Sequence record: OV754623
DNA length: 64,000 nucleotides
Reading direction: 5' to 3' (one strand)
Source of the DNA: Escherichia phage UGJNEcP1
Shown here: positions 10,549-55,510 of the stretch, piece by piece
How the letters are laid out: each line of letters opens with the position of its first letter
How positions within the stretch are numbered: position 1 is the stretch's first letter
Notes under the pieces: generated by a model
Told to the model about the DNA's origin: nothing
The model's database searches: none
Seen by the model: the letters and a program-made list of their open reading frames with translations, nothing else
Translations under genes and position numbers: made by a program

Positions 10549-10592
10549 GCTAATTTCCTCAATTGATTAATGTTTTTGTAATCCATGAGAGC

Positions 10593-10621
10593 ATTATACT
10601 CTGCTCTCAAGAGTTTGTACA
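10593..10621 (-). promoter_or_regulatory. Early promoter with inverted repeat around -10
   Basis: TATAAT flanked by TGAGAGC / GCTCTCA arms; the 32-bp core is repeated exactly at 55476-55507. Confidence 0.5.
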
Positions 10622-10624
10622 ATT

Positions 10625-10825
10625 TTATTCGGCCATATCAGAACGTTCAAAAAGCTCTTCAACAGTTAAACATTCAGTGTCATCCTCAATAAAGAATCGA
10701 GTCCAACACGTTGGGGCGATACAGTTATGAGTTTGTCCGGCGATAGAAGCTACACGAATAAGCTGCTGACCGTTATTCAGAACAAATTTTTCACCAATTT
10801 CAACATCTTTAAAAAGCTTAGCCAT
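10625..10825 (-). CDS. Hypothetical protein (66 aa)
   Basis: ORF with upstream early promoter; several Cys. Confidence 0.45.
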   Translation of the reverse strand: MAKLFKDVEIGEKFVLNNGQQLIRVASIAGQTHNCIAPTCWTRFFIEDDTECLTVEELFERSDMAE

Positions 10826-10853
10826 TTTGTGTTCCTCATGTTTCAGTAGGACT

Positions 10854-10883
10854 ACTATACCATAATCCTACCTTGTTGTAAAC
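10854..10883 (-). promoter_or_regulatory. Sigma70-type early promoter
   Basis: GTTTAC, 18 nt, TATAGT; inverted repeat GTAGGA..TCCTAC around -10. Confidence 0.55.
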
Positions 10884-11075
10884 AATTAAATTACATTAAA
10901 ATATGTTAAAGCCAACCATGTTCCTGTGAACGAACACGCAATGTAAAAACCCGTATCGCAAATTGTTCTTAGTACAATAAGAAGTGCATTTTTCATAAGT
11001 ACCTCAATGCAATTGAAAATATTATACAAATCATAGGGATACTAAGCAACCATATTCCGATCCACATTTTAGAGC

Positions 11076-11339
11076 TCATAGCTCAACTTCCGCCAGTTCC
11101 ATATATCCTTTGTTGATAGTCTCTTTAAGGTCTTTAGAAAGAATGACATTAAAATGGTCGTTCATATGTCCGTTAACTAAACGAGTTATTTCGGCTTCAG
11201 ATGACATATAAGGCACGTCTGAGTCCCAATGAGATAGTCCCAAATGGGTATAAATCATCCCTTCGTCATCTGCAGTGTTGTACATTGAAACAAATTCGCC
11301 TGTTACTTTATGTTTTGCGTAGAAAAATTTAAATTTCAT
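11076..11339 (-). CDS. Hypothetical protein (87 aa)
   Basis: ORF downstream of an early promoter. Confidence 0.5.
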   Translation of the reverse strand: MKFKFFYAKHKVTGEFVSMYNTADDEGMIYTHLGLSHWDSDVPYMSSEAEITRLVNGHMNDHFNVILSKDLKETINKGYMELAEVEL

Positions 11340-11365
11340 AATGTTATCCTCTTTTAGATAGGACT

Positions 11366-11395
11366 ACTATAACATAGTCCTACTTAGTTGTAAAC
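11366..11395 (-). promoter_or_regulatory. Sigma70-type early promoter
   Basis: GTTTAC, 18 nt, TATAGT; inverted repeat AGGACTA..TAGTCCT flanks -10. Confidence 0.55.
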
Positions 11396-11407
11396 ACTTT
11401 TATGAAA

Positions 11408-11884
11408 TTAAAGATGAAGATACCACCCGTTGTAGTTGCTCTTGCGGACGATTTTCTTTAGGTCTTCATGGTCTCCCACAAACTTTATAGAATAAGAGAA
11501 GACGTCAGGTGAGGTTTCTTTGACATCTAATATAATAATGCAATCTGCGACTCGATGATTCAAGAAGGGCCCTATATTGATTCCATTACCACCCGGATAA
11601 TCACCGCTGTATCCTGTGGTAACCGAAATCCATTTAGAATCTATCTGATGGGTCTTTACTTCTACGCGTAGACCACAGTACTTAGGATGAGCTAAAACGT
11701 CCCACGCATACGTGTACGGGTCTTCTACGTCTTCAATACCTTTATTAACATATCCGTCTAGCCAATTTGCTACTACGTACTCTGCAAAGACCGCAACCTT
11801 ACAACGTCGAACTACATCTTCTTTGTTTTGGTCAGGATTTTGGCTCAGGGAATACCGAGCAGTGTCAGCAATCTTCACCTTCAT
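11408..11884 (-). CDS. Hypothetical protein at the denB position (possible nuclease)
   Basis: About 158 aa from the internal Met (MKVKIADTARY...); positional analogue of T4 denB between ndd and rIIB; family not verifiable by eye. Confidence 0.4.
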   Translation of the reverse strand: MKVKIADTARYSLSQNPDQNKEDVVRRCKVAVFAEYVVANWLDGYVNKGIEDVEDPYTYAWDVLAHPKYCGLRVEVKTHQIDSKWISVTTGYSGDYPGGNGINIGPFLNHRVADCIIILDVKETSPDVFSYSIKFVGDHEDLKKIVRKSNYNGWYLHL

Positions 11885-11900
11885 TTCACTAGTCAAAAAC

Positions 11901-12188
11901 TCATTCGACAGGATAAATGTCGGAAGATTCTTCAGTCTCAACAGTCCCAAGTTCGTCTTTACCATAGATACCTCTGATGTGTAGTTCGCCAAAATAAATG
12001 CGGTCACCTTCTTCAAGATATTCAGCATCTACAGATGGAATTTCAATAACAACTTCGTCGCATTCTAACCAGCCGTAGTGTGCATCACCAGGATGTTTTA
12101 CCAATTTAGCACAATAAACTGATTTACACTTATGATGACCACGAAGATTAGCAATTTTGGATTCTGATACGTCAAATGGATGAATCAT
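11901..12188 (-). CDS. Hypothetical protein (95 aa)
   Basis: ORF immediately downstream of rIIB. Confidence 0.45.
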   Translation of the reverse strand: MIHPFDVSESKIANLRGHHKCKSVYCAKLVKHPGDAHYGWLECDEVVIEIPSVDAEYLEEGDRIYFGELHIRGIYGKDELGTVETEESSDIYPVE

Positions 12189-12206
12189 AATTACCCCTAA
12201 AGAAAA

Positions 12207-12228
12207 AAGGGGACCGAAGTCCCCAATT
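12207..12228 (-). terminator. Rho-independent terminator downstream of rIIB
   Basis: Minus-strand hairpin ggggacttcggtcccc followed by TTTTTTT. Confidence 0.6.
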
Positions 12229-12229
12229 A

Positions 12230-13177
12230 TTATTCTGCAAATAATTCAGTAACGTCTGAAATTACTTCATAACGACATGTACGCATCTTAGCATCACCAT
12301 AGTCAACTGGGATGGATACAACATCACGTGGATGAACTTTAACCTTAACAACTTTATCTGAGCTAGAACCAAAGTAACGAATATATGATTTAGCACAAAC
12401 GTGGAGACCGCGAGAACAGGTTTGTGTATCATCGTCGTTAACTCGAGTACGAGGCATTGAAACAACTTTACCAGGCGAGTTATCAAATGTGCCACTATAG
12501 CAATCTAAATAGTCTTTACGAACTACTTTCCATGCATAGAAATACCCATCTTCAGTGATTTCAATATCGTTTGCAACCAAGAAGTCGAATAAACGTTGTA
12601 CAGCTTTTTCGCTTGGGTTTTCTAACAGGTTTTCAAGGAATGGCAGATAGAATTTAAAGTCTTCACCTTTTTCCATGGAATCAATAATACGGTTAACCAG
12701 CCCTGAACGAATCTCTATACCTTGATAAAATAAACTACCACCTTCAATAGTAACATTACCGTCAACAAACTTACTAATAGCTTTCTTGATGTTAATAAGT
12801 TCGACAGCTTTACTAAGGTTTCCTGCGACCAAATTAGCTTTAATTTCTTCAAAATTTGCATGACTTGATGGGGTCGCATTGTATGCTACGCGTCCTTCAA
12901 TGATTGAAATAAATTTAGATGACGCGTTCCATATGATTTCAGGACGATGTCCGCCGATAATAGGTTCATCATTTTCTGGAACTTCTTCGATTACATAAGA
13001 GGCATCGTTTGCTTCAGGGACAACGCCTTCAGCTTTAAAATTCTTAACAATCTTACGAAGAGTATCTGTTGAAATGTCGAAGTAATCGGCAATTTCTTTA
13101 CGAGTCCATTTGCCTGATTCAACCAGGCCGTAAGCTTCTAACTGTTCTTCTTGGGACAAGCATTTGATATTGTACAT
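12230..13177 (-). CDS. rIIB: rIIB protein
   Basis: 315 aa; MYNIKCL start, long stretches (FDFLVANDIEITEDGYFYAWKVVR, TQTCSRGLHVC.KSYIR.FGSS) match T4 rIIB. Confidence 0.9.
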   Translation of the reverse strand: MYNIKCLSQEEQLEAYGLVESGKWTRKEIADYFDISTDTLRKIVKNFKAEGVVPEANDASYVIEEVPENDEPIIGGHRPEIIWNASSKFISIIEGRVAYNATPSSHANFEEIKANLVAGNLSKAVELINIKKAISKFVDGNVTIEGGSLFYQGIEIRSGLVNRIIDSMEKGEDFKFYLPFLENLLENPSEKAVQRLFDFLVANDIEITEDGYFYAWKVVRKDYLDCYSGTFDNSPGKVVSMPRTRVNDDDTQTCSRGLHVCAKSYIRYFGSSSDKVVKVKVHPRDVVSIPVDYGDAKMRTCRYEVISDVTELFAE

Positions 13178-13186
13178 AATGTTTCC

Positions 13187-15400
13187 TTATTTGGCCGCTT
13201 CCACGGCCTTCATGAATTTAACGATTTGAGCGACCTGTTCTTTTGAAAGAGTACCACGTCGTCCCATGTATTCTGACACAATATGATAATTGGTTTCAAA
13301 TTCAATAACCATTTTATCATCATTATCGTAAGCATTATCTTTAAGCTTATCGAAAATTTTAGCACACAATTCTAACTTCCTGTTCAGGTCTGTATTAGTA
13401 GCACCTGCGAATCGATTCCATCCCCAGCGATTATTTACTGTTGAGAGTTTTGCAAAGTCTTTACTGATTTCTTTGTTCTTAGAGCTAAAATACTTACTAA
13501 GGAAGTTAAGCTCTTCATTACGAGTAATATGATTCAAATAAGGCTGTGCTCTACGACTTGGTGATACATACTCATCATAATCTACTTTATCGATTAGCAT
13601 AATATAGTCATTAATTGATTTTTCAAACAAACATTCTACTTCACCAAGTTTACGAACTTTCTTAGCAATCTGTGGGCGAACTACAGTGAACTCTTTAATA
13701 CCTGACAAATCGGCAATACGAGTCAAGAAATTAGAATCATAGTTCAACCAACCTTTATCTGCGTCAAGACATTCAGCGTTAGAACGATTACGAATTACAA
13801 CATAACCTTGAATCTCATCAGCTTTACCGGCCGGAATAAAGAGATCTTCTGATACCCAAACATCGTTTTCATTCTTAAAGAACCGATGAGCACTCGGCGA
13901 TTTAGGACGAGGCTGCGATGAACGTTCTTTAACTTCAATCCACGGTTTAACTAATGCAAGAATTTCAGATGTCTTATAAAATTTAAGGCTATCACCAGCG
14001 AAAATAACCTTTAATCGTTCCAGAAGTTTCATTGCAACTTCATCTTCCGGGTTAATGAATAATACGCTACTACCCCATCCGGAAGGAACCTTATCAACGA
14101 GTGTTGATGCATCGGTGGAAGTCAAAGCATCGTTCAGAGCACGCATCATTGGTACGCGGCCTTTCACATCGTCAATAACGATATCAATATGCTTACGACT
14201 AATACCTAGCAGGCTATTAATTGAAATAGTTGCAGACGAGCTTCCGCTTTCACGAATACGACGAAGTCGTGGGTCTGAAACGATATCATATACAACGCCA
14301 AGGTTGCACCATTCAGGTCCCATTTTAAAACGTTTGTACAACTCAGAATAAGTTAGTTGTTCTTTAGAGTATTTCAGTGATTCAATATTAGAACCGGCTT
14401 TTTCCATATATTTACGAGCAGAGTAACCAAGAGAATCGATTTCACGGAATACATGACGTGGATATTCACAATCAATCCATTTCTTAGAATCTTCAGCAAA
14501 TAATTTTGCATCGATTTCTGCAACACGTTTATGGATATTTGCTACTGTACGTTTATCAAATGACAATGCTTCACGAGACGGGGCTACATCTAGTTCACCC
14601 ATAGGGAATTTAATATAAGCTGTAGTGCATCGCGTCATCATCCATGTTTGTTCTTTAATAACACTTCCGATTGGATATACAATACCGCCATAAACAGCCA
14701 TGATATTACCACGTTCACCCCATGGAGCTTCCTTGGCCAAATATACATCGTCAAATTCAGGAAAGTATTTAATATCTTTAACACCGCGAACTTCTGCAAT
14801 ATCACCTAGAGGACGCATAACATATGCAATTTCAGATGCGAACTTTTCAAAATCTTCTGGGTTAACAGGTACAACTACTTCTACACCCGTACGGTCATCA
14901 GGACCCATCTTATCTACAAAGGTTGGCTTAATCTGTGGACCACTGTCATCTTGGTAGATTACGTAACCACGAACTTCACCGTTGTGATAAGACGTAAGGT
15001 TAAACGTATCAGTATATGCTAGCGGAGCTTTAGAGCCGAGTCCGAATCCACCAATGAAATCGTTACTCGATGTTTTAGTTGAAGCAAAATATGAGTTATA
15101 GATTCCTGGCTCTTCGTCATTACCTCGAATGGTGAAATCACTCATACCAGGACCAAAGTCTCGAACTACAAAACGTGGGTCTAAACGACCTGGTGCCTGA
15201 ACAATAAACTTATCAGTGCAACCATTAAGAATTTGTCCATCGATACAGTTTGTGATTAATTCACGTACACAAGCCAATTCTTTGTTTGTATAAAGGTCAT
15301 TAGACAAAATCTTATAAACTTTGCTATTGCCTTGAATAGTAAATGCTGTGCTCTTACCGCCTGAACCAATAATCGTTTCTTTAGCCGTTTCAATAATCAT
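13187..15400 (-). CDS. rIIA: rIIA protein (GHKL ATPase-like)
   Basis: 737 aa; position upstream of rIIB; N-terminal ATPase-like region with Gly-rich loops (DFGPGM, GGFGLGSK). Confidence 0.85.
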   Translation of the reverse strand: MIIETAKETIIGSGGKSTAFTIQGNSKVYKILSNDLYTNKELACVRELITNCIDGQILNGCTDKFIVQAPGRLDPRFVVRDFGPGMSDFTIRGNDEEPGIYNSYFASTKTSSNDFIGGFGLGSKAPLAYTDTFNLTSYHNGEVRGYVIYQDDSGPQIKPTFVDKMGPDDRTGVEVVVPVNPEDFEKFASEIAYVMRPLGDIAEVRGVKDIKYFPEFDDVYLAKEAPWGERGNIMAVYGGIVYPIGSVIKEQTWMMTRCTTAYIKFPMGELDVAPSREALSFDKRTVANIHKRVAEIDAKLFAEDSKKWIDCEYPRHVFREIDSLGYSARKYMEKAGSNIESLKYSKEQLTYSELYKRFKMGPEWCNLGVVYDIVSDPRLRRIRESGSSSATISINSLLGISRKHIDIVIDDVKGRVPMMRALNDALTSTDASTLVDKVPSGWGSSVLFINPEDEVAMKLLERLKVIFAGDSLKFYKTSEILALVKPWIEVKERSSQPRPKSPSAHRFFKNENDVWVSEDLFIPAGKADEIQGYVVIRNRSNAECLDADKGWLNYDSNFLTRIADLSGIKEFTVVRPQIAKKVRKLGEVECLFEKSINDYIMLIDKVDYDEYVSPSRRAQPYLNHITRNEELNFLSKYFSSKNKEISKDFAKLSTVNNRWGWNRFAGATNTDLNRKLELCAKIFDKLKDNAYDNDDKMVIEFETNYHIVSEYMGRRGTLSKEQVAQIVKFMKAVEAAK

Positions 15401-15412
15401 ATTTTTCTCTCA

Positions 15413-15613
15413 TCACAAGTTACGTTTAAAAATTTCTGCCACTTCGAGAAGTTCTTCTTTAGTAGCTGTATCGGTTTGTATTTTATATCGAATTTCTTTA
15501 AAGCGTTCTTTAAAGGACTCTGCTGACTCGATATCAAAAAATCTTTGGATAAGCCGGAATTCCCGGAGCACTGCTTTATCAAAAAGTTCCAAGTCCACGT
15601 TATATGTTCTCAT
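15413..15613 (-). CDS. Hypothetical protein (rIIA.1 position)
   Basis: 66-aa ORF directly upstream of rIIA. Confidence 0.45.
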   Translation of the reverse strand: MRTYNVDLELFDKAVLREFRLIQRFFDIESAESFKERFKEIRYKIQTDTATKEELLEVAEIFKRNL

Positions 15614-15705
15614 AATATTCTCTTCAGTAGATTCCTAGGGCACTATTACTAAAGACCATATAATCTATCATCTTATGTGTAATAGTGCCTCAGGCTATTC
15701 AGGAT

Positions 15706-16806: not shown

Positions 16807-16814
16807 AATTAAGC

Positions 16815-18666: not shown

Positions 18667-18699
18667 GTTGTCTCCTCGTTATGAAGGTATTCTATCATC

Positions 18700-19995: not shown

Positions 19996-20023
19996 AATAT
20001 TCTCCTCTTGTTTTGATAGGTCT

Positions 20024-20052
20024 ATAGTATCATAGACCATAGTTGTTGTACA
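20024..20052 (-). promoter_or_regulatory. Sigma70-type early promoter with inverted repeat
   Basis: TGTACA, 17 nt, TACTAT; arms GGTCTAT / ATAGACC flank -10. Confidence 0.5.
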
Positions 20053-20577
20053 TCATTTTAGCAAAATAAAATCAACTTGTTCTGCCAATGAACGTCTGAA
20101 CATTAATTGACAACTTCCAAGGATGAAATCAGGTGCTTCATAGACCGCGATGTAGTATCCTTTAGCTTTCAAGAGTTCAACATCCACCTGGTCATCAAAC
20201 CATGCATAGACCGCGTCAACACTTTCAAATCCAAAATAGAACTCTTGAGCCCAATCTTCGCTCAATTCAAATGTGTGCTCAATTCTATGGTATCTTAAGG
20301 TATTTTGTTCAAGGAGTTTGTCTTCATTTACTGTAGGACGATTAGGGACATTATAGTTGTCGCCATGATGGTAGAAGTTACCTGAGAGTATTCCATGCTT
20401 ATCAAGGAACTCCCATGTTTCTTCAGAGTTGTCGGTGCCCGACCAACCGTATGGCGAACGAGGTTCTTTATTCCAAGAGGTTTCCCAAATTCTGACGGCT
20501 TTACCGTCTTCAATAGCAATTCCTGGTAATGATTCACGTTGAGTACAAAAACTACGTTCTACTCGGTAAACTAACAT
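20053..20577 (-). CDS. Hypothetical protein (174 aa)
   Basis: ORF with its own upstream promoter; no family recognised. Confidence 0.5.
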   Translation of the reverse strand: MLVYRVERSFCTQRESLPGIAIEDGKAVRIWETSWNKEPRSPYGWSGTDNSEETWEFLDKHGILSGNFYHHGDNYNVPNRPTVNEDKLLEQNTLRYHRIEHTFELSEDWAQEFYFGFESVDAVYAWFDDQVDVELLKAKGYYIAVYEAPDFILGSCQLMFRRSLAEQVDFILLK

Positions 20578-20604
20578 ATTATTCTCCTCTGGTTGATATG
20601 GTTA

Positions 20605-20632
20605 TAATATCAAAACCAGAGGAGAAGTAAAC
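20605..20632 (-). promoter_or_regulatory. Sigma70-type early promoter with 11-bp inverted repeat
   Basis: GTTTAC, 16 nt, TATTAT; arms CTCCTCTGGTT / AACCAGAGGAG flank -10. Confidence 0.55.
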
Positions 20633-21530: not shown

Positions 21531-21592
21531 AATTTCTCTCTCTTTGTTTAAATTGAATTCACTATACTCCATCCATCCTTGGATGTACAACA

Positions 21593-22118: not shown

Positions 22119-22148
22119 ATTATACTCCAACCATCCTTGGTTGTAAAC
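22119..22148 (-). promoter_or_regulatory. Sigma70-type early promoter with spacer hairpin
   Basis: GTTTAC, 18 nt, TATAAT; the spacer holds a 6-bp stem hairpin (caacca-tcct-tggttg); same element at the 3' window edge. Confidence 0.55.
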
Positions 22149-26029: not shown

Positions 26030-26644
26030 CTAAAAATTCAACATTTTCAAATGAATGATTTTGTATAATCGAGATAAAGGGTCATACTCTAACTCTTCGA
26101 TTTCCACAATCTCAAATCTAGAGATACTTGAAACCATGTACTCTTGTTCAGATTCAATCATATCTAGGACATCAACACGTGTTTCTTCCATAACATGCTT
26201 AGGGTTCTTTCCGGCGAGTACAATATTAACCATGTTTTGGTAGTAATCAAAAATGAATGGAGCATTCCTGAGACTAAGAATAGTGTACGTCTGATATTCC
26301 CATCTCCCAGAGAATTGACGAGCTGTACTGAAATCAGTTGTGAACGATGTTACTCGTCCAGGAGACCAATGGCATCCAACAGAAAGAAGTGAAAGACGTT
26401 CTACTTCTTCTGGAGTTACACCACGGTAAAGTTCTACTGGTACTGTAGAAGTCATATGCTTACGAACAAGATGGTCTAATTCATAGTGGAAATCCGGGTC
26501 TTCCTTAGAATCGGTGCAAGCCCAGAGAATGTTTTGTTCTTGGCGGGTGAATTTGTTATCAATAAGATTTGTTAGGTATTCACGTTCTTGAAGTTCAGAT
26601 TGACATGTCATGATAGACCTCCATTTAAAGATAAAGCCTATCAT
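26030..26644 (-). CDS. modB: ADP-ribosyltransferase ModB (R-S-E class)
   Basis: 204 aa; paralog of the preceding gene with LYRGV, SFTTDFSTA and MIESEQEYM motifs. Confidence 0.7.
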   Translation of the reverse strand: MIGFIFKWRSIMTCQSELQEREYLTNLIDNKFTRQEQNILWACTDSKEDPDFHYELDHLVRKHMTSTVPVELYRGVTPEEVERLSLLSVGCHWSPGRVTSFTTDFSTARQFSGRWEYQTYTILSLRNAPFIFDYYQNMVNIVLAGKNPKHVMEETRVDVLDMIESEQEYMVSSISRFEIVEIEELEYDPLSRLYKIIHLKMLNF

Positions 26645-26828
26645 AACACGAGAGGAGGGAATGTAAACTACTTTTTAAGCTTTCCTACTAAAGGACCATC
26701 AGGACCAGGTTGTTCTAACATGAATAACGATGCTTTAAAAAGCAATGTCAACCCTTTCACCATTCGATACCATGTCTCAAAGTCTTTTTCCTTAATTTCT
26801 AGTAAGAATTTCTCTTTAAATTTCTCTT

Positions 26829-28149: not shown

Positions 28150-28180
28150 AAAAAAAAGGAATCCCGAAGGATTCCTAAAT
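28150..28180 (-). terminator. Rho-independent terminator downstream of soc
   Basis: Minus-strand hairpin ggaatccttcgggattcc followed by an 11-nt T-run. Confidence 0.7.
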
Positions 28181-28465: not shown

Positions 28466-29002
28466 TCAGTAACCATTATCCTGACGTTCAAAGTTGTGTT
28501 GGTTTTTCAAGTAGTAAAGTTTAAAGATTTCTTCTGCAGTGAGTCCAAGACCCTGGAACATATTCAGAACAAAGTGGAGGATATCAATCATTTCAAATTT
28601 AATTTCAAGCTGGTCTTCAGGAGACAGTTCATCGATACGACGATTTCGATATTCAGCATGTTGTGCTTTCCAAGGCTTCCATACAGAGCTAGCGGCTTTT
28701 TCACCATTGCTCATACCACCGAGTGAAGTCAGCAGTTCACGGAATTCATCATCAATATAATCTTTCTGATTACGCAGCCAATCAACAACATCACCAGCAG
28801 TGGCCAATTCATCAGGATGTTTGTTATGTTCAGGCTTGTCATTTGCCAGACGAACCTGTAAAGATTTCTGCATATCAAGCATTACCTGCAGTGGGTCTTT
28901 ATCTTCGTGAATCAGAGCATTAAAATAAGCTTCTTCCGCTTTATCAACACCAGAAATAAGTTGTGAACATTCGTTAAAGTGTGCCATTATTTTTCCTTTC
29001 AA
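28466..29002 (-). CDS. 56: dCTP pyrophosphatase gp56 (MazG-like)
   Basis: 178 aa; all-alpha NTP-pyrophosphatase-like sequence at the T4 gene 56 position between soc and 61; start may be the internal MAHF. Confidence 0.7.
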   Translation of the reverse strand: MKGKIMAHFNECSQLISGVDKAEEAYFNALIHEDKDPLQVMLDMQKSLQVRLANDKPEHNKHPDELATAGDVVDWLRNQKDYIDDEFRELLTSLGGMSNGEKAASSVWKPWKAQHAEYRNRRIDELSPEDQLEIKFEMIDILHFVLNMFQGLGLTAEEIFKLYYLKNQHNFERQDNGY

Positions 29003-29075
29003 TTCAGTATAAGAGAGTTAATTTTAACATTAATTTTATAAAGCGTAATAAATAATAGGTAACTAAGGAGATATT

Positions 29076-29273
29076 ATGTTTAAACTTCCATCGTTAATCA
29101 ACGCTATTAAAGGCAATAAAAAGAAAACTGCTATCGCTGCAATAGTTGTAGGTGGCATTATTTCATGGAACTTCGGGATTGCACCATTGTTAGTTGCCCA
29201 TGGTATTATAGTTCCTTCTGTTCCATTGGATACTGTAGTTGATTTGGCCTTTGCTATTATAGGGCTTGTTTAA
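29076..29273 (+). CDS. Small hydrophobic membrane protein on the plus strand
   Basis: 65 aa; strong RBS taaggag 7 nt before the ATG; two hydrophobic segments; convergent with the gene 61 stop. Confidence 0.5.
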   Translation: MFKLPSLINAIKGNKKKTAIAAIVVGGIISWNFGIAPLLVAHGIIVPSVPLDTVVDLAFAIIGLV

Positions 29274-31963: not shown

Positions 31964-31992
31964 TTTAACTCCTTAGTTGATTTGATAGGACT

Positions 31993-32022
31993 ACTATACT
32001 ATAGTCCATCTATAATGTAAAC
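31993..32022 (-). promoter_or_regulatory. Sigma70-type early promoter with inverted repeat
   Basis: GTTTAC, 18 nt, TATAGT; arms GGACTA / TAGTCC. Confidence 0.55.
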
Positions 32023-33171: not shown

Positions 33172-33485
33172 ATTTCCTCGCAAAATGCCCATTCAGCGTG
33201 ATAAACTGTAGCGCCTTTAGTATCATTCATTTGAACTACATCTACCGGAGAAATTACTCGATAGAGACGTGGTTCACCTCCATAAGAGCGTGCTGCTCGT
33301 CCTGCATAAATCTTTGCTAAACCGATATCTTCGGTAAAGAATACACGATCCAAGTTTTTCTTACGTCCTGTTTCAGACAGAACTCCTGTTTCTTCAGGAG
33401 GACAAAGCATGTTTTCGATGTTAGCTGAACTACTTGAACCGTGATAAAAAATCTTAAATTCTGCTTTACAATCGATGGTTTTCAT
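33168..33485 (-). CDS. Small protein with an ADP-ribosyltransferase-like H-Y-E signature (tentative)
   Basis: 105 aa; FYHGSSSS (H-G-S), AKIYAGRAARSYGG (Tyr-rich loop) and YHAEWAF (catalytic Glu context) in the order seen in PARP/diphtheria-toxin ARTs; short for a full ART domain. Confidence 0.35.
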   Translation of the reverse strand: MKTIDCKAEFKIFYHGSSSSANIENMLCPPEETGVLSETGRKKNLDRVFFTEDIGLAKIYAGRAARSYGGEPRLYRVISPVDVVQMNDTKGATVYHAEWAFCEEI

Positions 33486-33511
33486 TTTGTTCTCCAGTAG
33501 TTGATAGGTCT

Positions 33512-33540
33512 ATAATAACACAACTACTGGAGAAGTAAAC
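33512..33540 (-). promoter_or_regulatory. Sigma70-type early promoter with 10-bp inverted repeat
   Basis: GTTTAC, 17 nt, TATTAT; arms CCAGTAGTTG / CAACTACTGG flank -10. Confidence 0.55.
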
Positions 33541-33915: not shown

Positions 33916-33944
33916 AATGTTTTCCTCTTGGTTTGTGTAAGTGC

Positions 33945-33974
33945 ATCATATCATGCCTAGAGGAAGATGTAAAC
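33945..33974 (-). promoter_or_regulatory. Sigma70-type early promoter
   Basis: GTTTAC, 18 nt, TATGAT; arms TCCTCT / AGAGGA around -10. Confidence 0.5.
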
Positions 33975-41124: not shown

Positions 41125-42794
41125 TGATGAGTGATATCGCCACCGATTGGACGATAAGAAACACCAGTTTCTTTATCAGTTAGTACCCATTTACCAGGAT
41201 TTTTTGTAATCAGAGTAGCCGTTACAGGCTCTGCTACGTCATAACTAATAGAGCCGTCTTGAAGTACACGGCCCATGTTACGTAATTGCTTAGTCAGAAG
41301 TTCCATACCTTTATAATATGCGGCTACCGCTTTAAGTGGATTATTCTTGAAATAACCACCTAATGCAATCCAGATAATTGCCACCGCCAAATGATGATAC
41401 TCGTTAAACGAACTCATCTTTCCATATTTGTAAATTAATGGATTGATGTTAATAGTCACATTACAAGTTGTTTCATCAATAGTAAACTGTCCCCAGGTCG
41501 GATTAGCATTGAATTCATCATAACCTGAAACAGCATAAAGCACTTTAGCTTCATCGTACAATTTTGGCCCGTAAATCTTGGTTTCGCCAAAATATCCACG
41601 AGGGTCGATAAACTTGACTTCGCCGTTATCAGTAATCATAGTATTACTGAAGTTCGGGTCACCGTGAATAACAGAGTACTGTCCCTGAGAACGGTTATGA
41701 TAACGAATAAGGTGTTCTAAAGCTTGTTTCAGCATTGGCTTCAGACGTCCAATCTTAGTGTAGTTCACGTGTGTGATTTTACCAAATGAATCAATCAATG
41801 GTTGAATGCTTTCACAACGATCAATAACTTTCGTATAGAATTCTTTAGTGAAATCACGACGAACAGTTTCAGGACTTACAAAATAAGTGTCTGTGCTGAA
41901 TTTCAGTGCATCTAAAATTGCATCAACAATTTGTGGACGAGCAAGACTTGATTTGGATTTAATATATTCAAATGCCGGCTTACCTTTAATGCGTTCCATT
42001 TCAAAGTTATTTTCATTAACAGAAACTAACTGAGGAACTGAATCTGATTTCACTTTAAGATACCATGAAATCTCATCTTTCTGAAGAGCTCGGCCCTGTT
42101 CGGTTAATGCGAATTTAGTTACAGTTTCTTCACCAATTTCAACTGCATTAAAACTACGATTAAGTTCACGAACTTCATGAGCCTTTTCAAGTTTAGGCAT
42201 ATCACCTAAATCAATTAGATTCATAAGCTCTGATTTATTGAATGCACTCCCGTAAAGGAATTCTACAAAATCACGTCCTTTGCAATATTCGTGAATTTCC
42301 TCATCAGTAGAACCCATGTAGAATTCCCAGTCTTTGAACTGATAAATTCCTACAACATTACCACCTGTTGAACCTACGTTAGTGATATTTTCACCGTCGA
42401 AATTATATCGACATTCGTCACCCTTAACATAGATTGCGTTAACATTCCAAGACCATGAACCAAAATCAGGAATAATATCACACCAGTTAACAATTACGTT
42501 ATGGCCGTCTAAATCTTTGTGTAATTTAGCAAGAGCATAAGCAGAACCATACGCTTCATCAACTGTACGAATAGTCACATTGAACCCTTCTTGCTCACAA
42601 TAAGCTCGAACAGTTTCAGCAAATTTTGAATGAACTACTACAATAATTTCATCTGCGCCAAGGTCAGAATAAATTGTATACAAATTGCTCAGAATAGTGT
42701 CTTGTTTATAGTTAACAAGCACCTTAGGAATATGATGCGTTATTGGATACAAACGAGTTGCCAGTCCAGCACCAAGAATAACAGCTTTTTTCAT
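41109..42794 (-). CDS. Bifunctional sugar-1-phosphate nucleotidyltransferase / APH-like kinase
   Basis: 561 aa; N-terminal RmlA/GlmU-type signature AVILGAGLATRLYPIT; C-terminal HGDPNFSNTMI and FIDPRG resemble the catalytic loop of aminoglycoside/choline/anomeric-sugar kinases; RBS gagga. Confidence 0.65.
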   Translation of the reverse strand: MKKAVILGAGLATRLYPITHHIPKVLVNYKQDTILSNLYTIYSDLGADEIIVVVHSKFAETVRAYCEQEGFNVTIRTVDEAYGSAYALAKLHKDLDGHNVIVNWCDIIPDFGSWSWNVNAIYVKGDECRYNFDGENITNVGSTGGNVVGIYQFKDWEFYMGSTDEEIHEYCKGRDFVEFLYGSAFNKSELMNLIDLGDMPKLEKAHEVRELNRSFNAVEIGEETVTKFALTEQGRALQKDEISWYLKVKSDSVPQLVSVNENNFEMERIKGKPAFEYIKSKSSLARPQIVDAILDALKFSTDTYFVSPETVRRDFTKEFYTKVIDRCESIQPLIDSFGKITHVNYTKIGRLKPMLKQALEHLIRYHNRSQGQYSVIHGDPNFSNTMITDNGEVKFIDPRGYFGETKIYGPKLYDEAKVLYAVSGYDEFNANPTWGQFTIDETTCNVTININPLIYKYGKMSSFNEYHHLAVAIIWIALGGYFKNNPLKAVAAYYKGMELLTKQLRNMGRVLQDGSISYDVAEPVTATLITKNPGKWVLTDKETGVSYRPIGGDITHQWERI

Positions 42795-49105: not shown

Positions 49106-49147
49106 TTTATTTCCTTTCAAGACAATTCAAAGTTTATAACAAATTTA

Positions 49148-49564: not shown

Positions 49565-49576
49565 ATTATTTCTCTC

Positions 49577-49777
49577 TTATTCGTAGAAGTCGGTAACTGT
49601 CCATGCGGAATTGCGATTAGACATTATTTTATTATACTCATCTTTAAAAGCAGATTTGAGCATTTGTTCAGTAACAATATGTTCTTCACCTGAAAACGTA
49701 TTGGTCAAAACATATTTTTTAATTTCAGGGACAACGAGAAGATGTTGGCCAGTTGAATACTCCATGTTGTTCTCCAT
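49577..49777 (-). CDS. Hypothetical protein (66 aa)
   Basis: Small ORF downstream of gene 46. Confidence 0.4.
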   Translation of the reverse strand: MENNMEYSTGQHLLVVPEIKKYVLTNTFSGEEHIVTEQMLKSAFKDEYNKIMSNRNSAWTVTDFYE

Positions 49778-49819
49778 TTAATTTGATGTGGTCATTATAA
49801 CCACATCGTGTTAAAGCGT

Positions 49820-51508: not shown

Positions 51509-51759
51509 ATGTATTCTCTTCGAATGAAGTCCTCTACATATTTTAACATGTCATCTCTATCAGCAAAATATTCATCTAGTTCTGCATACATGACAACACC
51601 TGGTGCGTACTCACAGGTAACATACATTGTTCCAAAGAAACGAGGAGTTGTCTCCTCGTAATTCTCAGTCCATTCAACGATACCAATATAACCGTCACCA
51701 ATACTAAATTCGTGACGATGGATTTCATAATCAGTCTTCGTCATTATACGCATCCTCAA
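51505..51759 (-). CDS. Hypothetical protein (84 aa)
   Basis: ORF between 47 and 46. Confidence 0.45.
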   Translation of the reverse strand: MRMRIMTKTDYEIHRHEFSIGDGYIGIVEWTENYEETTPRFFGTMYVTCEYAPGVVMYAELDEYFADRDDMLKYVEDFIRREYI

Positions 51760-51988
51760 TACACGCTTCGGCCATTTTAAGAATAGAGCCAGGAGTATCG
51801 TTGTCCATTATATTAAAGCTAAATTCAATAGCCCAGTCAGTGCAGACATGAACTGCTTTAACTTCATTGCCTTCAACGCGTAATGGCTCAATCCAATACT
51901 TGATAGTGTTCTCGAATCCATCATCATCTTTAACGTCCATTTCAACTTCAAGCCTGAGTCCAGCATTGTTAAATTCATCTAAAGTCAT
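51731..51988 (-). CDS. Hypothetical acidic protein (85 aa)
   Basis: ORF between 47 and 46. Confidence 0.45.
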   Translation of the reverse strand: MTLDEFNNAGLRLEVEMDVKDDDGFENTIKYWIEPLRVEGNEVKAVHVCTDWAIEFSFNIMDNDTPGSILKMAEACIEDAYNDED

Positions 51989-53004
51989 TGTGTTGCCTCA
52001 ACATAAAGTTCGTTGGAATATTTGACCAGCGCTTCTCTGTCTTCATCTGAGATATCCGGAATCGCGTCAATATATTCTTTAATGATATCTTGAAGCGATT
52101 TAATCTCGATTTCCTGGTCGTCATCAGATTCAACACTGTTATCAACTTTAGAAACCATGCGAAGAGAGTGAACTACTTTTTCAAGTTCAGATTCAAACTT
52201 AGTCAACTCTGAATCAATTTCTGATACTATAACACGTACGGCTAGATTAGTATAATCAGAATAATTGATTTTGCCTTTAAACGGATAAGTGATTCGTCGA
52301 TGCCATGTTGTTTCATTAGGAATAAATTCCATACGTTCAACATCAGTGTCAAATACCCAGAATCCGCGAGGGTCGTTCTCATCACCTGCAGTAAGGGTCC
52401 ATGGTGTCCCAATATATTTGACGTTAGCAGCTTCAGAGATTGTGTGGAAGTGGCCAGAACAGACTTGTTTATAGGTCTTTAAGAAATCAGGTTCAAGCCC
52501 ATGAGACTTCATTCCTTTATAGAAATAAAAGCCATTCAGTTCCCAGTGCCCAACACAATACGCTGCGGAAGAAGTCTTGATGTGCTCTAAGATTTCACCT
52601 GTATTTTCTTCACACATCCATGGAACGATATCAATCAGACATCCATCAAAATCTACAGTAGTTGGATGCTCATAAATAGTAAAGTTTTCAAATTGAGTTA
52701 ACAATTCAGAAACAGTGTTAGGTGTTATTGTATTCTTAAACGCCATGTCATGGTTTCCTACCGTGACATGAACGTGAATGCCTGCTTTAGAAATCATATC
52801 AACGATTTCACGATTGAATTCCATCGTACGATGTGTTATTGCTTTACGGACGTCAAACCAATCACCGCACTGAATCCAAGTTTTAATCCCGTGTTTCTTA
52901 GAGTATTCAATTGCTTGACGAATACCATCACGTTGAATGTCTTGAACCCATGGGTCGTCTTGTTTGACTCCGATATGGAAGTCGCCTAAGTACAAAATTT
53001 TCAT
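51985..53004 (-). CDS. 47: Recombination nuclease subunit gp47 (Mre11/SbcD-like)
   Basis: 339 aa; N-terminal phosphoesterase motif ILYLGDFHIG, GNHD motif. Confidence 0.9.
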   Translation of the reverse strand: MKILYLGDFHIGVKQDDPWVQDIQRDGIRQAIEYSKKHGIKTWIQCGDWFDVRKAITHRTMEFNREIVDMISKAGIHVHVTVGNHDMAFKNTITPNTVSELLTQFENFTIYEHPTTVDFDGCLIDIVPWMCEENTGEILEHIKTSSAAYCVGHWELNGFYFYKGMKSHGLEPDFLKTYKQVCSGHFHTISEAANVKYIGTPWTLTAGDENDPRGFWVFDTDVERMEFIPNETTWHRRITYPFKGKINYSDYTNLAVRVIVSEIDSELTKFESELEKVVHSLRMVSKVDNSVESDDDQEIEIKSLQDIIKEYIDAIPDISDEDREALVKYSNELYVEATQ

Positions 53005-53056
53005 ATTATTTCCTCATTAGTTAATTCATTTTATCATCCGTTTATAAAGCAAAAAA

Positions 53057-53080
53057 GGAACTCCGAAGAGTTCCTATCCA
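53057..53080 (-). terminator. Rho-independent terminator upstream of gene 47
   Basis: Minus-strand hairpin ggaactcttcggagttcc followed by TTTTTT. Confidence 0.55.
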
Positions 53081-53247
53081 CATAGTACACCATACAGAGG
53101 CTCATTTGAACTTTTAAATCGAATGGGCTTGTATGTAATAGTTCCTTCGGCTTTAGCTTTATCATAAGACTCTTTAAAACGTCTCATTCTTTCTGCTTTG
53201 CCTTTACGGATTTTATCGAAATTTTCAGAAGTCGGGATGTTCGTCAT
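53074..53247 (-). CDS. Hypothetical small basic protein (about 55 aa)
   Basis: Hand-translated MTNIPTSENFDKIRKGKAERMRRFKESYDKAKAEG...; RBS gagaggtg; below the track cutoff. Confidence 0.35.
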   Translation of the reverse strand: MTNIPTSENFDKIRKGKAERMRRFKESYDKAKAEGTITYKPIRFKSSNEPLYGVLCG

Positions 53248-53286
53248 GCATAAGCACCTCTCAGAAAATGCCTAAATCAATTTCTC

Positions 53287-53508
53287 TCATCGTTTCCACC
53301 ATTTCTTAACTTGAAATGAATCGACCCACACGAGTTGTTTTGGGTCTGCCTTTACAATAGGCGGACAAATTTCTGTAATAGAACCGTCGTGATATTCCTT
53401 TTCAGAAATTTTAACACAAAGAGGACCTCCCAATTTAAGGGTGAACCCTGCGTTCAGCTTCAGACGTTTAAACTTTGTTTGAACTAGCGCCATTAATGAT
53501 GTCCTCAA
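53287..53508 (-). CDS. Hypothetical protein
   Basis: 73-aa ORF in the alpha-gt slot; start uncertain. Confidence 0.4.
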   Translation of the reverse strand: MRTSLMALVQTKFKRLKLNAGFTLKLGGPLCVKISEKEYHDGSITEICPPIVKADPKQLVWVDSFQVKKWWKR

Positions 53509-53791
53509 TAGCCTGACGAGTAGTAACCCACTGGATTTTAATTAACTTGTCATTATATGGTTGTCGTAGAATATCCCGAGATTTCTTAATAGCATATTCG
53601 TAAGCTTCGAAGTTGTTTTGAATTGCTGCTTCTTGAGCGTGAGCATAAAGACGGTTTAGTTCAAAACGATTCTTTTTAAGAATCTTTTCGGATTTTTTAC
53701 GTGCTTCAGCTTCATTTTTCTTTTGGATTTCTTGTAGCATTTTAGCTACTGCATCTTCTGCTTCTTTATTTTCAATAATCTCGGTAGTCAT
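53468..53791 (-). CDS. Hypothetical protein (107 aa)
   Basis: Lys/Glu-rich helical ORF in the alpha-gt slot. Confidence 0.45.
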   Translation of the reverse strand: MTTEIIENKEAEDAVAKMLQEIQKKNEAEARKKSEKILKKNRFELNRLYAHAQEAAIQNNFEAYEYAIKKSRDILRQPYNDKLIKIQWVTTRQAIEDIINGASSNKV

Positions 53792-53792
53792 A

Positions 53793-54008
53793 TTATCTCA
53801 TTAAATTAAAATAAAAACGTCCATCCTCTTCAATACAGAACTCATACTCAACCGGAGTCCCATTTATCGAAAATGACACGTCGTGTGGGTTCAAAGGGTC
53901 GATGTCAAAATTAATTTTAAATTCACGACCCAACAGTTTTACCAAATAAGGGATTGCTTCGTCAAAAGGTTCTTCTAAGTAGTTAGAGATGTCAATTGTC
54001 GTCCTCAT
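53793..54008 (-). CDS. Hypothetical protein (about 71 aa)
   Basis: From the internal Met; overlaps the gene 55 3' end. Confidence 0.35.
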
Positions 54009-54549
54009 ATAAAAAATCCAAACTAGGCGAATCGCTAACAACTTCCTTCTTTTCAGCCCCAGGAGCTTTATAAGCGGATTCTTCATAATGCGTCATTTTA
54101 TCGTAGATGTCTTGAATAAACGTTTCATCTACCAACGCTACCATATCATCGTCATGACTGTCGTAGACATTATGAACGAAGTAACTATATTTCTTTGCAA
54201 CTTCCTTACGTTCTTTTTTGATACGTTGGACAAAAGCATTAAAACAAGCTCGAGTTATGTATGCATGTGGGTTATTGTACTTAGTTTCGTCGAAATTATG
54301 AAGTCCCTTAATAGAGGCTTCAATCCCATCTGCAATCATCTCCTGCTTCCAAGACTGGGTATATCCTGAAAAGTTGAAACGTTTAGACAGGCCTTCGGCA
54401 ATAAGCATAATTGCTAAACCGATGGTATCATTCTGACGAATAATTTTGTTTGGGTCTTTATTATTTAAGAGCTCCTTTTTCCACTCGATTATAGCGGCGA
54501 GAAGCTCTTTATTATTCACATAGTTATTTTTATGTTTTTGTTCAGTCAT
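53992..54549 (-). CDS. 55: Late sigma factor gp55
   Basis: 185 aa, T4 gp55 length; N-terminal NNKELL..I..WK and a sigma region-2-like segment. Confidence 0.85.
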
Positions 54550-54621
54550 AAGTACCTCTTAGCTCAATTCATAGGTCTATTATATCATAATATTTAGAGA
54601 CCTATCTTAAAGCACGAGATA

Positions 54622-54891
54622 CTATCGGAGCAAACAATAAGCCTGAAACACTTTTTCCATTAAACGTTTGAACTCATGGATATCGATATAAAGCTCAGGA
54701 AGTCCGGCGTTATAAAGAAAATCTAAAAAGTTCTCATGTGTTTCGTTATAGTCGCCTTCGTTTAATTGAGATACATGAGTTTCCCAAAAACCGACACCTT
54801 TAACAAATGGAAAATACGTAACTTTCATAAAGTTGTCGACGTAAAATTCGCCCAGCTTTTCTTCAGTTATAGCGATTCGAGATAGTTTCAT
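54622..54891 (-). CDS. Hypothetical protein (89 aa)
   Basis: ORF in the packed array downstream of 55. Confidence 0.45.
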   Translation of the reverse strand: MKLSRIAITEEKLGEFYVDNFMKVTYFPFVKGVGFWETHVSQLNEGDYNETHENFLDFLYNAGLPELYIDIHEFKRLMEKVFQAYCLLR

Positions 54892-55115
54892 TCTAGTTCC
54901 TTTGCTGCTTCAAGAGCAGCATCCAGCGAATCAAATTGGTCAACGAAATCAATATTCAACGCATCGTCAACCGTAGCATATAGCCACCATTGTTTAAATT
55001 CATATTCTAGAATAAATCCAGGACCTTCAATCTGAGGAAGACCTAGACTATTTGTACCAACTTCGTAACCAGCTAGACGCAGATCATTAATCAAAGTTTC
55101 TGTTAATACGCTCAT
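54888..55115 (-). CDS. Hypothetical acidic protein (75 aa)
   Basis: ORF with overlapping stop/start. Confidence 0.45.
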   Translation of the reverse strand: MSVLTETLINDLRLAGYEVGTNSLGLPQIEGPGFILEYEFKQWWLYATVDDALNIDFVDQFDSLDAALEAAKELE

Positions 55116-55444
55116 TTTACCGCCTTAACAATTTTCAAGTCAGCGAATTTTTTCTTACGTTGATTTTTCATACGACGGATAGTCTTTTCAGAGATTTCAT
55201 GTTTCTGATAAGCTTTAGATTCAACACCAAATGCAGCAACGTCAAATTCAGAAAGAATATATTGTACTAGAATTTCGCGAATAGAATTACGTCCAATTTT
55301 CTGGTCGTGTTTTTGCATGATTTCATAAAGACGGAATTCCCATGCGTCAAGAACTTGAGGAGTAACAATATTGCCGGATTCCAGAAGAGCAACAACTTTA
55401 TCGAAAGCGAAAGAATTAACTACGTTTTTGATTTTAGTAGACAT
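55112..55444 (-). CDS. Hypothetical protein (about 110 aa)
   Basis: From MSTKIKNVV with RBS gaggaaa; promoter repeat just upstream. Confidence 0.5.
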   Translation of the reverse strand: MSTKIKNVVNSFAFDKVVALLESGNIVTPQVLDAWEFRLYEIMQKHDQKIGRNSIREILVQYILSEFDVAAFGVESKAYQKHEISEKTIRRMKNQRKKKFADLKIVKAVK

Positions 55445-55481
55445 ATTATTTTCCTCGGTTATTTTATTATCCAACGAGAGC

Positions 55482-55510
55482 ATTATACTCTGCTCTCAAG
55501 AGTTTGTGCG
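55482..55510 (-). promoter_or_regulatory. Early promoter (32-bp exact repeat of the 10587-10618 element)
   Basis: TATAAT flanked by TGAGAGC / GCTCTCA; identical core to the promoter upstream of ndd. Confidence 0.5.

Follow-up and report, generated by a model that had tools for sequence, protein, structure and literature searches.

Early promoters of the window

The DNA considered here is a 64,000-nucleotide stretch of Escherichia phage UGJNEcP1 (sequence record OV754623), referred to below as the window, and the elements in question are inverted repeats embedded in its early promoters. A 4-kb probe of the window is 99.7% identical to Escherichia phage UGJNEcP2, a T4-like phage of the genus Mosigvirus (RB69/HX01 group), and matches hundreds of other T-even-type phages at 80–98%. 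Judging from an annotated relative, the minus-strand early gene cluster spans positions ~5143–64000 and includes asiA, motA, ndd, denB, rIIB/rIIA, the topoisomerase genes, cef, motB-like genes, dexA, dda, srd, mod, mrh, primase, sp, imm, dmd and helicase 41. The GC content of the window is 35–40%, and its GC skew is steadily negative. T4-type early regions are crowded with small genes for host takeover and anti-defence, every one of which has a very strong promoter of its own, and both the independence of these cassettes from their neighbours and their sharp early shut-off are only partly understood.

The pattern GTTTAC-N16–19-TAnnnT has 22 matches in the window, all but two on the minus strand; dinucleotide shuffles give 4.4 ± 2.1. 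With one −35 position relaxed, and with a Shine-Dalgarno (SD) sequence, an ATG and an open reading frame (ORF) of at least 35 codons required within 80 nt, 22 early-type promoters were counted, an intragenic candidate at 41487 being left out; this bears out the first-pass annotation of the stretch, which had proposed at least 15 minus-strand promoters of this kind. When every intergenic gap of the minus strand is listed, those with a promoter are mostly only 55–68 nt long, with the stop codon of the upstream gene abutting the −35 element and the SD and ATG located 25–35 nt past the −10. The genes downstream are mostly small ORFs without an assigned function, together with ndd, sp, cef and a mod-like gene. 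The 25 nt on the 5′ side of the −35 are 72% AT, compared with 63% for the whole window.

Most early promoters of the window, and of JS98-like, RB49-like and 44RR-like loci, carry the segment (A/G)nCCTATCAA after the −10, covering −6 to +5 of the predicted start. Transcription start sites (+1) were assigned from this consensus as the seventh nucleotide past the −10, the A of the conserved CTATCAA, in agreement with the early-promoter logo of RB69, which has C at −3 to −1 (PMC1524935). In that study Nolan et al. (2006) predicted 57 RB69 early promoters, and hairpins were not mentioned (PMC1524935).

Inverted repeats in two preferred positions

The central proposal of the first-pass annotation was that in many promoters the −10 is bracketed by an inverted repeat. 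All the repeats that it cited were found and read as described, among them GGTCTAT/ATAGACC (20019–20038), CTCCTCTGGTT/AACCAGAGGAG (20584–20624), which reaches 13 bp once extended, and a repeat at 33494–33530 that extends to 14 bp; these and the other features of the window described below are on the minus strand unless stated otherwise. Pairing was measured as the longest perfect Watson–Crick stem between the last 3 nt of the −35 plus the spacer, on one side, and the segment from the last 3 nt of the −10 to the ATG, on the other. Summed over the 22 promoters, the stems amount to 130 bp, compared with 97.8 ± 4.2 when both segments are shuffled, 96.7 ± 4.1 when only the spacer is shuffled, and 100.7 ± 4.6 when spacers are re-paired with the downstream parts of other promoters, a partner swap that retains all consensus-level complementarity. 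None of 2000 replicates reaches 130 bp in any of the three controls, and stems of at least 7 bp number six, against 0.6–1.3 expected. The excess is carried by ~9–11 of roughly 25 promoters, to which the statement about bracketing has to be confined; the rest are at background, and about half of the promoters have no such stem. Stems of 6–14 bp bracket the −10 in ~10 promoters, with predicted RNA folds of −11.5 to −23.9 kcal/mol.

Related promoters were taken from 10 kb on either side of the conserved 105-aa early gene in 50 T4-like phage contigs and from the same span around dda in 15 contigs. These flanks were used because single small proteins as queries (20053–20577, 11076–11339 and ndd) gave only three near-identical loci each. 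Among 107 non-redundant promoters outside window-like loci the stem sum is 569, against 493–497 ± 10 in controls, and stems of at least 8 bp number 10 where 1.4 are expected. Only two registers are enriched when stems of at least 6 bp are placed in 159 non-redundant promoters, taken from ~60 contigs of T4-like phages other than the window: that in which the 3′ arm begins no more than 5 nt past the −10 (29 observed, 5.6 expected) and that in which the 3′ arm lies on the SD (18 observed, 9.6 expected), all other positions together giving 9 against 9.6. The palindromes thus exceed shuffled controls in both frequency and position, and they fall into positional classes rather than forming a single type.

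Class A is defined by complementarity to the downstream SD/AUG, either of an anti-SD arm or of the −10 itself. Promoter P33540 (33483–33540; −35 GTTTAC at 33535–33540, −10 TATTAT at 33512–33517) has the 5′ arm TTCTCCAGTAGTTG in its spacer (33521–33534) and the 3′ arm CAACTACTGGAGAA at 33490–33503, containing the SD GGAG of a conserved 105-aa early ORF (phrog_2110) that starts with the ATG at 33483–33485. RNA reading through from upstream is predicted to fold here at −21.9 kcal/mol (z −4.9, computed like all fold z-scores against dinucleotide shuffles), with an SD pairing probability of 1.00, as opposed to 0.32 in the local transcript. P20632 (20575–20632; −35 at 20627–20632, −10 TATTAT at 20604–20609) is built in the same way, with arms TTCTCCTCTGGTT (20614–20626) and AACCAGAGGAGAA (20582–20594, on the SD) ahead of a 174-aa ORF (phrog_1106; ATG 20575–20577), and its read-through RNA folds at −23.9 kcal/mol (z −4.1; SD pairing probability 1.00 versus 0.55 locally). 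In the variant A2, represented by P26668 (26604–26668; −35 at 26663–26668), the −10 TATGAT (26640–26645) lies inside the 5′ arm CGTGTTATGATAGGCTTT (26633–26650), and the 3′ arm GAGGTCTATCATGACATG (26604–26621) covers both the SD and the start codon (26609–26611) of a ModA/ModB-like ADP-ribosyltransferase gene; the predicted fold is −22.2 kcal/mol (z −3.9). The same design, with different discriminator and SD sequences, is present in JS98-like and other lineages. In these three promoters the SD is predicted to be 86–100% paired in read-through RNA, and transcripts from the assigned +1 fold at 0 to −3 kcal/mol.

Two further promoters resemble them. In P33974 (33913–33974), a weaker case with a canonical UUCG terminator directly upstream, the anti-SD TTCCTCT (33959–33965) pairs with AGAGGAA (33922–33928), giving an SD pairing probability of 0.92 versus 0.58 locally. 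In P56930 (56871–56930), which lies outside the interval treated in the first-pass annotation, an interrupted stem joins CCTC..ATAGATG of the spacer to CATCTA..ATAGAGG, including the SD (−12.1 kcal/mol, z −2.1; 0.98 versus 0.32 locally). All five promoters therefore have predicted SD pairing probabilities of 0.86–1.00 in upstream-started RNA; the first three belong to the strong-stem subset with confidence, P56930 and P33974 less so.

A similar excess appears when the untranscribed part of each promoter is hybridized in silico to its own translation initiation region: duplexes of −10 kcal/mol or stronger occur in 25 of 140 promoters against 9.2 expected from all non-self pairings (p ~5e-6), and duplexes of −12 kcal/mol or stronger in 11 against 2.9. 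The SD/AUG-sequestering design also recurs in phage T4 itself (NC_000866), in the early promoters of modB (13130–13186) and mrh.2 (15232–15288). In the former the −10 and discriminator pair with the SD and AUG, and the read-through RNA folds at −20.8 kcal/mol, which may bear on the known toxicity and tight control of ModB; in the latter ACTTTCC, right after the −35, pairs with GGAGAGT.

Class B hairpins have their 5′ arm in the spacer and a 3′ arm reaching from the discriminator to the predicted +1, so that the −10 is in the loop and the SD stays free. Since these 3′ arms are built on the conserved (A/G)nCCTATCAA segment, the variable partner is the spacer. P11395 (11359–11395; −35 at 11390–11395) contains the hairpin TAGGACTA-tgttatag-TAGTCCTA within 11359–11383, an 8-bp stem (−16.3 kcal/mol, z −2.8) in which the −10 TATAGT spans the loop and the 3′ arm and the latter ends at the predicted +1, with the SD free. 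P10883 (10846–10883; GTAGGATTATG-gtatag-TAGTCCTAC, with G·U pairs; −16.5 kcal/mol, z −2.2) is a paralogous copy of the type formed by P11395 and P32022, the last of which (31986–32022) precedes sp (spackle) and carries (T)GGACTAT-agtat-AGTAGTCC(TA). Upstream of cef, P20053 (20019–20053; −35 ATGTAC at 20048–20053) has the hairpin GGTCTAT-gatact-ATAGACC (20019–20038), and upstream of ndd, P10622 (10586–10622; −35 TTGTAC) has TGAGAGCA-gagtataa-TGCTCTCA (10586–10609). A further hairpin of this class, ATAGGTCT...AGACCTAT at 54571–54606, encloses TATGAT/TATAAT without a GTTTAC-type −35. The form is not confined to early promoters, as a probable MotA-type middle promoter (49785–49807; GCTTTA, 12 nt, TATAAT) has its −10 in the loop of GATGTGGT-tataatg-ACCACATC.

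Class C comprises small hairpins wholly within the spacer. P22148 (22119–22148), upstream of a 164-aa ORF, carries AACCA-agga-TGGTT, and a second core of the same type (63974–64000) is truncated at the window edge. Its paralogue P21590 has the compensated version ATCCA-agga-TGGAT (21571–21584), and three related loci (L116–118; L numbers denote loci of the comparison set) have CCACA-agga-TGTGG.

Orthologous promoters were grouped by the protein encoded downstream and inspected directly; column-wise covariation tools were not used because the 5′ arm occupies different spacer positions and the helices are not positionally homologous. At sp, the arms are GGACTAT/ATAGTCC in the window, GGTCTAT/ATAGACC in L063–L068 (with a G·U variant in L063) and GGGATAAT/ATTATCCC in L069, L073 and L074, with the 5′ arm at varying positions in the spacer. 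At cef they are GGTCTAT/ATAGACC in the window, AGGGTTAT/ATAACCCT in L119 and TGGTAGGAG/CTCCTACCA in L121/122. On the ndd-type backbone ACAAACTCTTG..AGAGTATAAT.., GAGAGCA/TGCTCTC of the window corresponds to GGGACCA/TGGTCCT in the T4-like loci L111, L113 and L114, that is, to two double substitutions and one G·U pair; the latter promoter was labelled motB-type from its leader GGAGUAUAAAA (the RegB motB substrate) alone, so that the gene assignment is provisional. Between L097 and L098, which with L094 are among these covarying orthologues, a G-to-T substitution in the 5′ arm has its counterpart, C-to-A, in the 3′ arm. The promoters of the 105-aa gene have TCTCC/GGAGA or TCCTC/GAGGA, depending on the lineage, or a class B hairpin instead. 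Across these groups the sequence of the arms changes but their symmetry does not, as the first-pass annotation had suggested in proposing a structural role, and because the 5′ arm often differs in position between lineages the pairing must have arisen repeatedly rather than having been inherited as one helix. The inverted-repeat feature is real, statistically robust and evolutionarily maintained.

Several other elements of the region lie near these promoters or resemble them. Near-identical copies of an early promoter with its leader, ~68 nt long and with four differences, are found at 7925–7992 and 8246–8313; they read GTTTACttttgcttcaaacatgRTATTAT...ccaaattggagaaataaaATGtctaaa and precede neighbouring genes beside motA, both of whose ORFs begin MSK, which points to local duplication of the promoter and 5′ gene end. 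Neither copy (P7992, P8313) has a stem above background, and a candidate MotA box in their spacer (TTGCTTCA) was dropped as too close to the −10. An interrupted inverted repeat of 16 bp with one mismatch and a 29-nt loop, CCTGAGGCACTATTAC ... GTAATAGTGCCCTAGG (15625–15697), absent from the first-pass annotation, occupies the gap upstream of a small ORF preceding rIIA; its loop contains several −10-like hexamers without a GTTTAC −35. At 55751–55805 a strong 10–11-bp hairpin, GGTAGGAAGA-taacac-TTCTTCCTACC, lies between a −10-like TATGAT, which it follows immediately, and the SD GAGGAG, 8 nt further on. At 60729–60767 a late-promoter motif, TATAAATA, stands directly before the hairpin ACCCTTA-tctatttaagg-TAAGGGT, whose 3′ arm overlaps the likely SD of a 157-aa ORF (60255–60728) and which would be contained as a whole in the late transcript. 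Amid the otherwise minus-strand cluster, a lone plus-strand ORF of 65 aa (29076–29273), hypothetical in UGJNEcP2, sits in an unusually long gap of 282 nt (28988–29269).

Probable pairing in read-through RNA

Because the 5′ arms lie in the spacer or the −10, upstream of the assigned +1, the promoter's own transcript is predicted to lack the 5′ strand of the helix, and only RNA reading through from upstream would be able to fold. The mismatches indicate in which nucleic acid the pairing is likely to matter. Single internal mismatches on the sense strand, bordered by a seed stem and by two or more additional pairs, comprise 14 G·T and 2 A·C with seeds of at least 5 bp (2.7 and 2.5 in spacer shuffles) and 11 G·T and no A·C with seeds of at least 6 bp (0.77 and 0.73). 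As G·T on the sense strand is A·C on the other, the asymmetry argues for pairing in sense-strand RNA. An RNA 5′ structure, one of the roles offered in the first-pass annotation, accordingly remains the most likely in so far as it means RNA; the structure would not belong to the promoter's own leader.

The same annotation had named a cruciform or a dimeric DNA-binding protein, and a DNA-level role can be formulated more generally as a cruciform or hairpin that tunes melting or exposes the −10, or as a palindromic operator of a dimeric early-shut-off protein. The −10 does lie in the loop of class B repeats, and hairpin promoters exist in phage N4. Both forms of the proposal are strand-symmetric, so that the G·T excess is not expected for a duplex or a cruciform; the arms have no sequence in common between promoters, which argues against one sequence-specific protein, and the 5′ arm shifts position in the spacer among orthologues. 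The 20–30-nt loops of class A disfavour extrusion, which would in any case destroy the −35/−10 geometry. How T4 early promoters are shut off is not understood (PMC2988021; PMC3014915), which leaves some room for such a factor, and we regard a DNA-level role as the least probable of the explanations weighed here.

On balance, and without great assurance, we favour the view that the embedded hairpins are cassettes of the kind published as PeSLs, in which promoter and stem-loop are combined, and that they fold only in read-through RNA; folding in vivo and effects on translation, termination and stability are what we infer from the patterns described above. A strong σ70 early promoter and a short leader would fill each ~55–68-nt gap, and the spacer, sometimes with the −10, being missing from its own transcript, would have evolved complementarity to the sequence just downstream. 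The hairpin would form only in transcripts started upstream; local ones, beginning at or beyond the 3′ arm, would stay unstructured, and the element would in effect mark an mRNA by its site of initiation. In class A, where the 3′ arm is the SD and/or the AUG, read-through mRNA would support little translation of that gene and would probably be protected from RegB, which cleaves at GGAG, and protein output would then depend on the gene's own immediate-early promoter. In class B, which leaves the ribosome-binding site free, the hairpin would most likely act in place of a canonical terminator, either as an intercistronic attenuator or as a 3′-end barrier of the cistron upstream.

Canonical intrinsic terminators, with a GC stem, a UUCG tetraloop and a U-run, are also present, directly upstream of early or MotA-type middle promoters (34003–33975, 28183–28150, 18729–18700, 16848–16825, 12229–12195, 53073–53045 and 46444–46420), and in several of them the U-run runs into a TTGCTTTA-like MotA box. 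Like the embedded stems, these T4-type terminators are intergenic RNA hairpins between early genes, and the two appear mutually exclusive: of 18 promoters preceded by a canonical terminator at a distance of no more than 60 nt, none has a stem of at least 7 bp, whereas 27 of the other 141 do, a borderline difference obtained with a simple detector (Fisher p = 0.044). They differ in that the terminators lie upstream of the −35 and have a GC-rich stem, a tetraloop and a U-tract, none of which is found in the promoter-embedded repeats. The latter are AT-richer and have loops of 6–29 nt, and the sequence after them is of the AUCAA type and not a U-tract. A consensus terminator scan between 19 and 35 kb scored no promoter-embedded repeat on the sense strand; there it picked up the canonical UUCG terminator at 28157–28176 and a few weak intragenic stems, and 20019–20038 scored on the antisense strand only. 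An Rfam scan of the whole window gave no family at gathering score.

These data bear on the original PeSL proposal, according to which the stem-loops serve as terminators or attenuators for the upstream gene; that this is their only role seems to us unlikely. For RB49/phi1, a PeSL stem-loop inserted ahead of lacZ cut expression as much as rrnB T1 (PMC2839356), an assay that cannot separate termination from effects on translation or stability. The absence of long embedded stems where a canonical terminator lies upstream is in keeping with termination, and the G·U bias suits any function in sense RNA. But a phage that has different, canonical terminators ahead of the −35 would be using for the same purpose stems that lack a U-tract and go unscored on the sense strand in the scan of 19–35 kb, and the proposal leaves unexplained why the 3′ arm lies exactly on the SD/AUG in one enriched class.

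Several observations weigh against the view that the hairpins fold in, and act on, read-through RNA. The promoters and +1 sites of this phage are consensus predictions. The class B hairpins, whose function is only tentatively assigned, have no U-tract, and none was scored as a sense-strand terminator in the scan of 19–35 kb. For class A, the mean SD pairing probability over 140 promoters is 0.588 in read-through RNA and 0.34 in local transcripts, and 0.579 after spacer shuffling; values of 0.8 or more are reached by 36 promoters against ~28 in shuffles. As shuffled spacers give the same difference, SD accessibility in general was rejected as evidence: occlusion of the SD in longer RNA is largely an effect of length and composition, and class A specificity is limited to the strong-stem subset, roughly 10% of promoters, in which P33974 (z −0.27) and P56930 are individually weak. 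A ribosome that terminates at the stop codon of the upstream gene, 0–15 nt ahead of the −35, could melt class A stems in part, resulting in translational coupling rather than a block. The G·U counts are small, the contributing promoters include related ones, and part of the asymmetry could come from a C-to-T mutational bias on the sense strand; the exclusion of embedded stems by terminators is, as noted, borderline.

The repeats might also be sites of exchange between DNA molecules, and recombination hotspots had been put forward in the first-pass annotation. Both of the exact promoter repeat pairs that it listed are present, 10587–10618, inside P10622, with 55476–55507 (32 identical bp, where identity ends) and 22119–22145 with 63974–64000 (27 bp, cut by the window end). 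The twin at 55476–55507 retains the hairpin GAGAGCA-gagtataa-TGCTCTC (55476–55497) behind a degenerate −35 (ACGCAC) and, by its sequence, may be a weak or decayed promoter. The members of each pair are in direct orientation, 42–45 kb apart, and since essential genes lie between them, exchange would not give viable phage; spread or conversion of promoter cassettes is more plausible than active crossover. With the end-points of BLAST high-scoring segment pairs between the window and 28 related loci taken as breakpoints, promoter cores have 13.2 per kb, coding DNA 3.6 and other intergenic gaps 16.7, so that cores are 3.7 times denser than coding DNA (p = 4e-4) and no denser than other gaps, and hotspots at the promoters are not specifically supported. 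One mosaic junction does fall inside a cassette. In three loci (L013/L017/L018; IMG/VR 2706795408, 2706795401 and 2706795394), the P33540 orthologue, which lies ~60 nt before the 105-aa gene, has had its upstream half replaced by a terminator (GGGGCTTACAGCCCC plus a U-run) followed by a −10-only element, and the leader with the 3′ arm AACTACTGGAG has been kept.

That recombination is the primary role, with the cassettes as crossover sites that shuffle small early genes and the exact repeats as footprints, is nevertheless quite unlikely in our view. The junction just described, the identical 27–32-bp cores at unrelated loci and the contrast with coding DNA fit such a role, and mini-circles between PeSLs have been demonstrated in RB49/phi1 (PMC2839356). 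But recombination needs shared sequence, not intramolecular symmetry, and the covariation of the arms, the G·U bias and the two preferred positions would be left without explanation; the exact repeats, besides, are separated by essential genes.

A final alternative assigns the repeats no function and derives them from templated mutation of quasi-palindromes by strand switching, from the duplication of promoters and from consensus elements that are complementary by chance. Templated correction of quasi-palindromes is classic in T4 and would alter both arms together, several window promoters are paralogous (P11395, P10883 and P32022, besides the exact repeats), and in about half of the promoters no stem exceeds background. 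Against this, the excess survives the partner swap, which removes consensus-level complementarity as a cause, and is confined to two functionally meaningful positions; neutral mutation predicts neither the preference for G·U over A·C nor the depletion of stems beside terminators; and differing arms at differing spacer positions before the same gene indicate repeated independent origin. We therefore think it very unlikely that the repeats are without function, a chance slightly above that of a DNA-level role. A wider form of the RNA reading, that ~10–20% of T4-like immediate-early promoters, including that of T4 modB, carry a convergent RNA switch whose untranscribed half is anti-SD or anti-AUG and which renders read-through mRNA silent and RegB-resistant, each gene being translated from its own promoter's mRNA alone, is a serious possibility that falls somewhat short of probable.

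Relation to known stem-loops and gating hairpins

If the hairpins gate translation or attenuate read-through, they would represent compact, context-insulating parts of ~60 nt that help to explain how toxic early proteins, the Mod ADP-ribosyltransferases among them, are controlled in time, and that account for the shuffling of cassettes between phages without mis-expression. The RNA-switch reading, if true, would amount to a general principle of insulation for densely packed early cassettes and would partly explain why some early proteins stop abruptly despite persisting read-through and middle transcripts. Such elements are relevant to annotation, to the interpretation of phage RNA-seq and Ribo-seq data and to the engineering of therapeutic T4-like phages. 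The gain is incremental, because the basic architecture has already been published as PeSLs.

In the two PeSL papers, Arbiol et al. (2010) defined these elements in RB49/phi1, proposed a terminator/attenuator role and demonstrated recombination between cassettes (PMC2839356), and Comeau et al. (2014) extended them to T4/PST and KVP40/nt-1 (PMC4122927). As there described, a PeSL combines a σ70-like early promoter, AT-rich sequence upstream, a short spacer ending in an SD and ATG, and a stem-loop. The promoters of the window have the same components: a σ70-like promoter behind AT-rich DNA, an intergenic site ending in the SD and start codon of the downstream early gene and, in about half of them, a stable stem-loop in or overlapping the promoter. 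The RB49/phi1 stem-loops, as presented in PMC2839356, lie mostly between the −35 and −10 or overlap the −10, are drawn with G-T pairs, precede small early ORFs and recur as repeated copies around the genome. The feature of the window is the published PeSL architecture in Mosigvirus, a genus from which it had not been described before. Differences concern sequence and placement. RB49 stems are typically G-run/C-run, whereas those of the window are sequence-diverse and AT-richer; in T4/PST the stem-loop is placed upstream of the promoter (PMC4122927) and corresponds to the canonical terminators seen here; and the window stems occupy two specific registers, from spacer to +1 and from spacer or −10 to SD/AUG. 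The recombination role of PeSLs is not specifically supported in the window. Sequestration of the SD or AUG is not described in the available text of PMC2839356 or PMC4122927, where Mosigvirus/RB69 is not analysed, and in the literature searched, whose coverage is incomplete, no description of SD sequestration by arms embedded in early promoters was found, so that this variant is possibly undescribed.

The 3′ arms of class A also recall the targets of RegB, which consist of GGAG and an A-rich tract at early SDs: sequences of the GGAGAAUAAUA or GGAGAACAAAA type are present in the arms and are similar to the consensus GGAGAAUAAAA (PMC1702504). RegB is inhibited by secondary structure, and Durand et al. 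(2006) found that a structure in modB RNA blocks it in vitro (PMC1702504). RegB is a trans-acting nuclease, whereas the elements of the window are cis structures predicted to modulate access to such sites.

The closest functional parallel to class A is provided by the T4 genes e, soc, 49 and I-TevI, in which hairpins that sequester the ribosome-binding site are combined with an internal promoter (reviewed by Uzan and Miller 2010, PMC3014915). There, as predicted for class A, long transcripts started upstream fold with the SD and/or AUG paired, and a promoter in or near the 5′ strand of the helix gives a shorter, translatable transcript that lacks this strand. These T4 genes use late (TATAAATA, gp55) or middle promoters that delay expression, whereas the window uses immediate-early σ70 promoters; the internal promoters of the window are of the early GTTTAC/TATAAT type. 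By analogy, class A would work like the e/soc/49/I-TevI family without being a member of it in the strict sense, and an early internal promoter would either limit translation to the earliest mRNAs or shield neighbouring cassettes from one another.

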